From a virus (taxonomy: Duplodnaviria > Caudoviricetes), in IMG/VR virus record IMGVR_UViG_3300007609_000073, positions 1-28,053 of that record: a stretch of 28,053 nt of DNA; one strand, given 5' to 3'. The notes under the pieces were generated by a model. It was not told where the DNA came from and made no database searches. It saw nothing but the letters and a program-made list of their open reading frames with translations. Below, piece after piece: positions 455 through 7,448 of this stretch. Both the position numbers and the translations under genes were made by a program. The first letter of the stretch is position 1. Each line of letters begins with the position of its first letter.

Positions 455-484
455 TGTTTTACCCTTTCTTTATGTTGTAATCAA

Positions 485-514
485 AAGTTAGCACAACGGG
501 CAAACACTTGTCAA
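485..514 (-). promoter_or_regulatory. Leftward sigmaA/sigma70-type promoter
   Basis: TTGACA (514-509), 18-nt spacer, extended -10 TGc-TAACTT (490-485). Confidence 0.75.
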
Positions 515-548
515 GCATTTTCTAAAAAAAGTTTTTTTCTTTTTCAGC

Positions 549-577
549 TTGACAATCTCCAAAACCTCCCCTAATGT
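549..577 (+). promoter_or_regulatory. Rightward sigmaA-type promoter of the candidate small RNA
   Basis: TTGACA 549-554, 17-nt spacer, TAATGT 572-577; A/T tracts upstream. Confidence 0.7.
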
Positions 578-583
578 TTTCAA

Positions 584-641
584 CGGGTCGAGTGCTTGAA
601 ACTTCTTCCCCCTTTCTTGTTTCAAGCACTCGACTTTTTTT
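584..641 (+). ncRNA. Candidate hairpin small RNA with anti-Shine-Dalgarno loop and intrinsic terminator
   Basis: Perfect 16-bp stem GTCGAGTGCTTGAAAC (587-602)/GTTTCAAGCACTCGAC (619-634), 16-nt loop TTCTTCCCCCTTTCTT, T7 tract 635-641, promoter immediately upstream. Confidence 0.65.
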
Positions 642-1023: not shown

Positions 1024-1052
1024 TTGACAACATAATTACAAACCGTTATAGT
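1024..1052 (+). promoter_or_regulatory. Strong rightward early promoter
   Basis: TTGACA 1024-1029, 17-nt spacer, TATAGT 1047-1052; SD AAAGAAAGGGG 1066-1076. Confidence 0.85.
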
Positions 1053-1082
1053 CAAAACTAGGTACAAAGAAAGGGGCAAAAA

Positions 1083-2375: not shown

Positions 2376-2503
2376 TGCAGATATTAGATATTTGTGATGA
2401 TTTTGCACCCGATACCCTAGCCCCTGATGAGGGTGATGGATTTGATTACACGCTAATTTGTTCCAGTTGTTTCTGGCACAAAGACGACCATAAGAAAGGA
2501 TAA
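2375..2503 (+). CDS. Small hypothetical protein, 42 aa (not in ORF track)
   Basis: MQILDICDDF...CSSCFWHKDDHKKG; TAATG coupling; SD GGAGG. Confidence 0.7.
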   Translation: MQILDICDDFAPDTLAPDEGDGFDYTLICSSCFWHKDDHKKG

Positions 2504-5413: not shown

Positions 5414-5886
5414 ACCTAAGCACACAGGCAAAGAACGCATTAGACCGAGTAGTAAACACCCACGTTTCTTATAAAATCGCCAGAGAGGGCTTTGAGCGTG
5501 AGTTACAGGCAGAACTACAAGAGAAGCTAAAAGAGTTTGTTGAGCAACGCAACAGGGCTGTGATTATGGCTGATAAGGCTGGAGTGCCGAGAACACAAAT
5601 TGGCAAGGCAATGGGAACAACCAATTACAGAACTGTGCAAGAGATACTAGAGGAAGCTGCTGACAGCGTGGACTTTGTCGCTGGTGAGAATGATAACTGG
5701 GCGATCAATAAGGTCGAGAACGGCTATGAGCTTTCGATTATTGAGCTAGGTGCAGGAGCGGTTAGCGGTACAGCAATTGTGCGTGTCAATGACGGAGAGC
5801 TGGAGTTTGTTCAGGGAGATCCGTTTGTAGTGCCACAGGTTTACCGCAACAACATTGCACCTGAGATCATTCAGGCGATTGCTTGA
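5410..5886 (+). CDS. Putative helix-turn-helix DNA-binding protein
   Basis: ADKAGVPRTQIGKAMGTT HTH-like segment after a long helix. Confidence 0.6.
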   Translation: MNLSTQAKNALDRVVNTHVSYKIAREGFERELQAELQEKLKEFVEQRNRAVIMADKAGVPRTQIGKAMGTTNYRTVQEILEEAADSVDFVAGENDNWAINKVENGYELSIIELGAGAVSGTAIVRVNDGELEFVQGDPFVVPQVYRNNIAPEIIQAIA

Positions 5887-6085: not shown

Positions 6086-7448
6086 TTATCAGGAGCGTGA
6101 TATACAAAAGATAATCAACAACGATGGAACTGGGATCATCGCAACACAAGTTGGTGGAGGTAAGACCTTAGTAGCAATTGAAGTTGCCAGAAGACTGAGA
6201 ACTGAAACCAATATGGTAATTGCACCTAAGGGAACTCACAAAAGAGCTTGGGAGAAAACGATCAAGCGACAGATACCAGAAGCTAAGGTGAAGTATGTAA
6301 ACAGCACCAAAGCTGGTAAAGAAGCTTGGGATGACTTAGCCAATGAAGTGCCTAGCTGGTACATATTGTCGCCAGAGTATTTTCGCAAGTTCCACTGGGG
6401 ATCTGTGAAGCCGGACTTTGCAGTGTTTGATGAAGTTCACAGAGCTAGTAACCGCAAAGCTAAGACTTCCACAGCCTTGTCCACGCTAAAGGCTAAGAGC
6501 AGACTTGCTATGAGTGGAACAATAGCTGGAAATAAGATAGAAGGTTTCTGGTCTGTGCTTAGGTGGGTCTATCCCGAAATAGCTGGCAGAAGCTTTTGGA
6601 AGTGGGTTGATAAGTATTGCATTACTAAGTTTGATCCATTTGCTGGCAAGGTGATTGCTGGTGAGAGAGTTGCAGGAGCAATTGTGGACTCGATCCCTTG
6701 CTACATTCGCCATCTAAAGAGGGAGCGTTGTTGCTCATTCCATCCTGAGGGTATGGATGCCGAGCTACCTAGAGTTGTGCAAGAAGAAAGAGTTGTGCAG
6801 TTATCTCCAGAGCAGAAGCGTATCTACAAGAAGTTTGAGAAAGACTTGCTTGTGTTCTTGGAAGGTAACCCGATGGTTGCTGAGGTGCCAGTGGCAAGCC
6901 GAATTCGACTGAGACAGATAACTCTGGGAGTTCCGACAGTCACCGATGAAGGTGAGGTTACCTTTGCTGAGGATTGCAAGTCATCCAAGTTGGACGAGCT
7001 GAAGTCAATTATCGAGGACTCGCCAGATGGTGAGCCAATGCTGATCTTGACTCACTCTCAGAAGTTTGCTGAGGTTACTGCTAAGCGATTAGGCGAGAAA
7101 GCGTTTGAGTGGTCTGGTAAGAAGTCTCAGAAGCTGAGAGATGAAGCATTAGAAAAGTTTATTGCTGGCGACTTGCAGTACATAGTTGCAGTGATTAGTG
7201 CCATTGGTGAGGGAACTGATGGCCTACAGGAGCGTTGCTCCACCGTAGTTTGGCTAAGCCGAGATGACAACCGATTGCTCAATGAGCAAGCAGCTGGTCG
7301 TTTAGATCGTCAAGGTCAGAAATCTTCTGTGACTAGTTTTGACATTATCGCAGAGGACACATATGATGAAGGACAGCTGAGCAAGTTGGTGCTTGACCAG
7401 TTGAAGATGAACCAATCACTAAGGAGAGAAGATGAGCAGGATAACTGA
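6048..7448 (+). CDS. SF2 (SNF2-like) DNA helicase
   Basis: PYDYQ Q-motif, VGGGKT Walker A, DEVH, SGT, GEGTDGLQ, QAAGRLDRQGQ. Confidence 0.92.
   Translation: MTEEITTTLKPYDYQERDIQKIINNDGTGIIATQVGGGKTLVAIEVARRLRTETNMVIAPKGTHKRAWEKTIKRQIPEAKVKYVNSTKAGKEAWDDLANEVPSWYILSPEYFRKFHWGSVKPDFAVFDEVHRASNRKAKTSTALSTLKAKSRLAMSGTIAGNKIEGFWSVLRWVYPEIAGRSFWKWVDKYCITKFDPFAGKVIAGERVAGAIVDSIPCYIRHLKRERCCSFHPEGMDAELPRVVQEERVVQLSPEQKRIYKKFEKDLLVFLEGNPMVAEVPVASRIRLRQITLGVPTVTDEGEVTFAEDCKSSKLDELKSIIEDSPDGEPMLILTHSQKFAEVTAKRLGEKAFEWSGKKSQKLRDEALEKFIAGDLQYIVAVISAIGEGTDGLQERCSTVVWLSRDDNRLLNEQAAGRLDRQGQKSSVTSFDIIAEDTYDEGQLSKLVLDQLKMNQSLRREDEQDN

Follow-up and report, generated by a model that had tools for sequence, protein, structure and literature searches.

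What is the role of a compact unit made of a promoter, a hairpin and a T tract that lies between the divergent early operons of a tailed phage? The DNA analyzed (here called the window; 28,053 nucleotides) is a 28-kb tailed-phage fragment, 58% complete, that codes for two WhiB-like proteins, an SSB, a helicase, an exonuclease, a Sak4 protein, a primase, and lysis and tail proteins. A complete record of 46,725 bp (G001, whose coordinates are those of the window plus 5369) is identical to the window in its helicase and throughout the stretch that was compared. The nearest cultured relatives of the helicase and primase, at less than 50% identity, are mostly phages of Arthrobacter, Clavibacter, Curtobacterium, and Microbacterium, and for this reason the host is likely to be an actinobacterium of the Micrococcales; a search of genome contigs yielded neither a host nor a prophage. 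The unit occupies the noncoding gap at 455-1082, with a short leftward operon on one side and a long rightward early/replication operon on the other, and neither a repressor nor an integrase was detected among the 44 window proteins scanned. To our knowledge, how lytic actinobacterial phages switch off their early genes is largely unknown. In the available main text of a review of phage small RNAs (PMC12197685), the strings "actino" and "mycobacter" do not occur.

A sequence-only reading of the locus had described a promoter, a perfect 16-bp stem, a 16-nt loop, and a run of seven Ts, all of which are present (Table 1). The stem lengthens to 18 pairs when two G-U pairs are included, and its 16-bp arms form the longest perfect inverted repeat of the whole window; the longest such repeat in 100 shuffles of positions 455-1082 did not exceed 12 (mean, 7.5). 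The predicted fold has an energy of -28.5 kcal/mol (z score, -6.65), a stability reached by 0 of 200 shuffled sequences. The stem probably doubles as an intrinsic terminator, so that the unit, as read from its sequence, has its own start and stop and contains no ORF, 57 nt being too short for a leader plus an ORF. Its -10 element fits TATAAT at only three of six positions, which is why the promoter was absent from our consensus promoter scan, and it is conserved as TAGTGT in a relative, G002. The A/T tract between the back-to-back -35 boxes may act as an UP element. Two other interpretations of this DNA were rejected: on the minus strand, where an SD-like loop would serve as a ribosome decoy, the sole promoter-like site (810-783) matches at 9/12 and a U tract is lacking, and a 56-aa minus-strand ORF (522-692) starts with TTG and is disturbed by indels in G002.

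Table 1. Features of the intergenic unit, its predicted targets, and comparable units at other loci (window coordinates unless a locus is named)
Feature	Position	Strand	Basis or remark
First leftward early gene, 70 aa	242..454	-	No PHROG or Pfam family
Predicted target 1, RBS of first leftward gene, 9 nt complementary	462..470	-	Sequence complementarity
Leftward early promoter, TTGACA-18-TAACTT with TG before the -10	485..514	-	G001 5854-5883; kept in G002
A/T tract between back-to-back -35 boxes	515..548	.	Sequence; kept in G002
Small-RNA promoter, TTGACA-17-TAATGT	549..577	+	Sequence; hexamers kept in G002, spacer diverged
-35 TTGACA and -10 TAATGT, 17 nt between	549-554; 572-577	+	Sequence
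Predicted hairpin RNA, ~57 nt	584..641	+	5' end from -10 position, 3' end from U tract
Stem, 5' arm	587..602	+	Compensatory changes in G002 at 595, 597, 598, 600, 601
C/U loop, 16 nt, predicted fully unpaired, likely pairing seed	603..618	+	Folding; identical in G002
Stem, 3' arm	619..634	+	100% complementary to 5' arm
U7 tract (T7)	635..641	+	Sequence; T8 in G002
Rightward early promoter, TTGACA-17-TATAGT	1024..1052	+	Promoter scan
Predicted target 2, RBS of first rightward gene, 10 nt perfect, 14/16 over whole	1067..1082	+	Complementarity; perfect run 1067-1076
First rightward early gene, 115 aa	1083..1430	+	No PHROG or Pfam family
Weaker possible target, 8 nt, before 53-aa gene at 2507	2492..2499	+	Duplex-energy rank 18 of 71
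Type D RNA, ~150 nt, multihairpin	L288:3983-4135; L290:669-823; L037:4966-5112; L025:4284-4440		Covariation
Type E structured unit with C-rich loops	L049:3234-3350		Same syntenic place
Another structured unit	L038:161-270; L040:2499-2610		Same syntenic place

Comparison with G002, whose helicase is 86% identical to that of the window phage and which keeps both promoter hexamers and the T tract, bears on whether the unit is a functional RNA. Stem covariation, which the sequence-only reading had put forward as a check on its RNA, is present: in this comparison of only two full sequences, 11 of the 18 stem pairs are the same, five are changed on both sides, two are changed on one side by a G-C/G-U exchange, and none is broken, while the loop is identical at 16 of 16 positions. 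The G002 stem further contains an inserted 1x1 mismatch. A single template-switch event can also give a perfect hairpin several such compensations at once. The unit of a third locus, L272, is the same as that of G002. Contigs from public DNA runs supply additional stem variants and no listed difference in the loop; this comparison lists no differences near contig ends, so compensation in the 3' arm lay outside it. Exact searches of viral_contigs retrieved a single match for the arm, in the identical genome, and 59 for the loop, two of them within this phage group. In some close relatives (runs X2 and X4), positions 545-679 are replaced by 127 other letters, and the loose end of X2 at this replacement also enters a TTGACA; this suggests that the region is a swappable cassette.

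We then asked what the loop might pair with. Complementarity to the leaders of the first gene of both early operons, at 1067-1076 (10 nt) and 470-462 on the minus strand (9 nt), with a lesser match at 2492-2499 (8 nt), had been claimed earlier and was recovered in full; 7 nt of complementarity also precede the gene at 2665. In G001, all five sites of at least 8 nt outside the hairpin unit fall at the RBSs of four genes. Their number is near chance (5 against 5.8 expected in 60 Markov simulations of G001), and sites of at least 9 nt number 3 against 1.1 expected; it is the location, rather than the number, that is nonrandom. Each of the three sites of at least 9 nt sits 6 to 7 nt ahead of a gene start, and each of the three genes directly follows a sigma-A-type promoter. 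Two of them start at window positions 454 (minus strand) and 1083; the third, which codes for 127 aa, lies beyond the window at G001 5174, with its site at G001 5189 (minus strand). These genes rank 1 to 3 of 71 by longest perfect run and 1, 2, and 8 by energy, against 21, 6, and 28 for a generic anti-SD motif. Their leaders are predicted to be nearly unstructured, and the G001 5174 leader (-18.3 kcal/mol) also pairs with the UUCUU part at the 5' side of the loop. Among 1,500 shuffled loops, 15 place all three genes in the energy top five, which the real loop does not.

The replication genes were said to pair less well, and the leaders of the Sak4-like gene (9082) and the primase (10374) indeed offer perfect runs of just 3 and 5 nt. 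A fourth promoter, at window 7339, has a long leader without a loop match. That promoter (TTGACA-17-TATGAT, 7339-7367) lies inside the 3' end of the helicase gene, is conserved in many relatives, and precedes an 81-aa gene and the two WhiB-like genes. Since the first rightward genes overlap as TAATG (at 1430, 1831, 2190, and 2375), translational coupling is possible; each of them also has its own purine-rich site. In G002, the same loop-complementary leader is followed by a different first leftward gene (6646-7227, minus strand), whose 193-aa product replaces the 70-aa protein of the window and resembles the DNA polymerase III beta clamp weakly, below threshold.

These sites are unevenly distributed among relatives. 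AAAGGG occurs in seven of the eight short-leader promoter-proximal genes of G001, G002, and G030 (a genome with a differently built hairpin; see below) and in 0 of 64 such genes in 23 other relatives, 23 of the 64 having AAAGGA; the contrast comes from two lineages only, with promoters and starts called by simple patterns, and its Fisher P value is overstated because only those two lineages carry it. The hairpin loop of the window phage and G002 (loop A) outpairs the 16S tail on 5/5 of its own early leaders and on 2/23 of the AAAGGA leaders of relatives. Mean duplex energies are -14.2 and -8.0, respectively, for loop A and -10.3 and -11.1 for the 16S tail. Actinobacteria presumably share the 16S 3' tail used here. 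It is the one tabulated for Listeria and Streptococcus (PMC6288834), and the last 10 nt of the loop differ from it by one base. The likening of the loop to the ribosomal anti-SD in the sequence-only reading can be refined: the loop is a C-run variant of the tail, not a copy. Its better-than-16S pairing with all five of its own leaders, and with only two of the 23 AAAGGA leaders, points to an anti-SD action that would be selective rather than global.

Loops and leaders also correspond in other scaffolds. The G030 loop ends in CCUUUCC, and GGAAAGG is found in all three promoter-proximal leaders of that genome (perfect runs of 9, 8, and 7 nt). In G003 and L278, the RNA matches the leader of the adjacent leftward gene over 11 nt, mostly outside the anti-SD motif; the best match of this RNA in other genomes is 9 nt, and no promoter was recognized at the matched leader. 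Loop or arm sequence thus matches the phage's own first-gene leader in three scaffolds, in favor of the loop/leader covariation for which the sequence-only reading had proposed a test. Over the few lineages at hand, the evidence that seed and target sites change together nevertheless points both ways. Loop A has matches of 8 to 9 nt at gene starts in noncognate relatives (six sites each in L288 and L290) and 9-nt matches at starts in G003, L279, L288, G013, and G015, because its 3' half mirrors the usual strong site of the clade. The rightward leader of G002 offers 7 nt (-10.7 kcal/mol) and its third leader 6 nt, and the best leader of G030 pairs as well with loop A (-19.2) as with the G030 loop (-17.9). 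No convincing phage targets were found for the C-rich loops of type B loop 2, L049, L288, L290, L037, or L025.

These scaffolds came from a wider search. A helicase query gathered 59 viral and 43 metagenome loci, many of which fall short of the early region, and an SSB query added no relatives. Scanning 32 sequences for stable stems that carry a C-rich loop and run into a T tract gave promoter-linked units in eight (G001, G002, L272, G003, G004, L279, G030, and G031), so that related units, sought at the suggestion of the sequence-only reading, do exist in more distant phages. Type A is the single hairpin of G001, G002, and L272. Type B (G003, G004, L279, and L278) is a three-way junction with two C loops, which in G003 and L278 stands at the syntenic place. 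Type C, a bulged hairpin with a different stem, is that of G030, a genome that emerged when viral_contigs was scanned blindly for a promoter, a C run, and a T tract (75 and 28 matches) and that shares proteins with the group by tblastn; G031 has no protein likeness to the group. Type D comprises longer promoter-to-terminator units with C-rich loops, recognized by eye upstream of the first rightward early gene, in which 14 of 56 pairs are double changed among three loci and no Rfam match was found in the three loci scanned. Here an internal TTGACA-17-TANNNT overlaps the C-rich arm, and it is therefore possible that a shorter second transcript is made.

The unit types follow the clades of the helicase tree, and types B and D share a junction core. 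As to homology between type A and types B and D, a sequence-only B+D model matched 0 of 11 sources, among them the window and even the type D locus L025, which marks the model as too weak. No comparable unit was seen in the early regions of six cultured distant relatives (Amigo, CMP1, Jojan60, Pan2, Commonplace, and Lifes). A stricter promoter/loop/T-tract pattern gave seven matches, two already known and five without a long stem. In the blind scan, a C run was unpaired inside the terminal stem in 5 of 48 distinct matches (two already known), against 0 of 37 for a G-run control, a contrast too weak for a virus-wide class. Several further arrangements deserve mention as such. The hairpin loop of L049 (type E) is nearly that of type B loop 2, on an unrelated stem. 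Seven loci (L007, L055, L313, L044, L054, L061, and L056) have, upstream of the first early gene and instead of a unit, tandem promoters 74 to 92 nt apart with no terminator between them, and L055 carries a perfect 15-bp hairpin with a 20-nt loop (L055:2421-2470) that on the minus strand is purine rich and stands just before a likely RBS. The blind scan also brought up mini-units of promoter, C-rich loop, and terminator in unrelated viral contigs (L188:2501-2599 [G031], L217/L206, L135, L141, L167, and L200), where no clear targets of their own were seen within 2.5 kb.

None of these comparisons assigned the RNA to a recognized family, in agreement with the sequence-only reading. At the gathering threshold, Rfam returned nothing in the window and, in four loci with longer syntenic RNAs, only a tRNA; in E-value mode, only subthreshold generic hairpins covered the unit. 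When the region and the units of types A and B were compared by BLASTN with 50,697 phage records, only chance matches resulted, and no sequence likeness to actinophage noncoding RNAs emerged there. No description of this hairpin RNA was found in the literature searched. At the level of its sequence, the unit is a real, uncatalogued phage small-RNA gene.

A close parallel is the actinobacterial 6C (B11) small RNA (RF01066). According to the part of its description available to us (PMC6486639), an unpaired C-rich loop on a stable stem and predicted pairing with G-rich RBSs are common to both, and mycobacterial 6C binds G-rich 5' untranslated regions (panD and dnaB) through its C-rich loops without a chaperone and inhibits growth. 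6C has two conserved C-rich loops (L2 and L3); type B relatives have two, and the window RNA has one. The window RNA further differs in that its one stem is at once the terminator and in being ~57 nt long and phage encoded, with predicted targets in the phage itself. The 6C covariance model found no match in the window and none in five genomes at an E value of ≤1, in a search insensitive enough that 0 of 14 control genomes reached the cutoff. In the c4 antisense RNA of P1 and P7, as outlined in the accessible text of PMC12197685, the RNA is likewise encoded apart from its target, and its loops pair around a phage RBS and block translation; unlike the window RNA, c4 has another structure and controls antirepressor synthesis in temperate phages. 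Rfam gave no c4 match in the window, and the predicted target genes belong to no family.

Two further actinophage elements are analogies. The start-associated sequence (SAS) of cluster K mycobacteriophages and of cluster EF Microbacterium phages, in the portions of PMC3203893 and PMC7302621 that we draw on, is also an unusual sequence shared by the RBSs of nonstructural genes, and four cluster K genomes carry one copy in the opposite orientation. It consists of 13-bp repeats in 10 to 19 copies, often with inverted repeats upstream, against three 9- to 10-nt sites in 46.7 kb here; moreover, the reverse copy is here the loop of a promoter-terminator unit, and those portions propose no such RNA for SAS. 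The abundant noncoding RNAs of cluster A mycobacteriophages and Rhodococcus phage WC1 also lie near early regions and are of unknown function, and the available part of their description (PMC10986025) includes no anti-RBS loop.

On these grounds, we lean toward the view that the hairpin is a trans-acting small RNA that likely represses the phage's own promoter-proximal early genes. A plausible mechanism can be conceived in which the back-to-back promoters let host sigma-A polymerase transcribe the hairpin RNA and the early mRNAs side by side as soon as infection begins. Being paired at its ends, the hairpin would be stable and accumulate. Each of the three short-leader early promoters has a first gene whose RBS would pair in trans with the C/U loop; the 30S subunit would thereby be excluded and translation blocked. 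The G-run leaders could still bind the 16S tail through G-U wobble until the accumulated RNA outcompetes the ribosome, and an A-C mismatch with the loop would spare ordinary GGAG leaders, a one-base discrimination. The outcome would be a timed pulse of early proteins, with no need for an RNA chaperone, as in the available account of 6C (PMC6486639). The shutoff of the early operons proposed by the sequence-only reading is partly supported by the covariation, the invariant loop, and the leader matches, with the comparison to the 16S tail pointing to a selective rather than a general action.

The same loop could instead belong to a 6C-like regulator whose main targets are host mRNAs with G-rich RBSs, which would aid takeover and leave the pairing with phage leaders secondary. 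The C5-C6 run is longer than the three or four Gs of the phage targets call for, it recurs in syntenic RNAs with unrelated stems, several of them without phage targets, and the accessible account of mycobacterial 6C, with panD, dnaB, and growth inhibition, provides a precedent (PMC6486639). We nevertheless judge this unlikely: it leaves unexplained why AAAGGG stands at promoter-proximal phage leaders only where the hairpin type is present, and, were the RNA directed at the host, such sites should be counterselected in the early genes of the phage itself. Rather more improbable is an action through a protein or another RNA, as a decoy for a pyrimidine-loop factor or as a sponge, the RBS match then following merely from likeness to the 16S tail. 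The single-base difference from that tail over the last 10 nt (PMC6288834), the near-chance raw counts of complementary sites, and the frequent noncognate matches are all compatible with it; however, the matches extend into non-anti-SD sequence (the G001 5174 leader and the 11 nt of G003/L278), and between G001 and G030, a change in the loop end is accompanied by one in the leaders.

We give very little credence to the view that the unit is just a strong terminator, or a hairpin in the DNA, which shields the origin-like region at 700-1020 from an adjacent promoter, with a loop devoid of regulatory function. The unit does border, on its downstream side, an AT-rich stretch that holds repeats and a 61-nt inverted repeat, many relatives lack it (8 of 32 were positive, one of these unrelated), and some close relatives swap it for other sequence. 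Yet a terminator needs neither its own conserved promoter 7 nt upstream nor a 16-nt loop kept exactly while stem and spacer drift, and the G-U pairs, bulges, and junctions of the homologues point to RNA.

Returning to repression of the phage's own early genes, a broader formulation, which we offer tentatively and regard as rather less than probable, is an RNA timer acting on recoded RBSs: a G-run address on the first genes, still legible to the ribosome, and a cotranscribed hairpin with a C-run loop that, on accumulating, shuts off exactly those genes. The locus would be a swappable small-RNA cassette in which unrelated scaffolds (single hairpin, three-way junction, multihairpin) display such loops throughout a group of aquatic actinophages. 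If true, one base would suffice for a 57-nt RNA, acting without a chaperone, to distinguish G-run from GGAG RBSs; such an RNA would be a minimal brake on early genes and a compact scaffold for translation control in actinobacteria.

The neighboring stretch at 700-1020 is noncoding, origin-like, and well conserved in G002. It contains three imperfect 27-nt repeats starting ACAAATTCGT at window positions 703, 848, and 988, an AT run at ~765-790, and the 61-nt inverted repeat at 849-909/954-1014, and both GC skew and gene direction switch near it. In L012, a similar origin-like stretch follows the first early gene.
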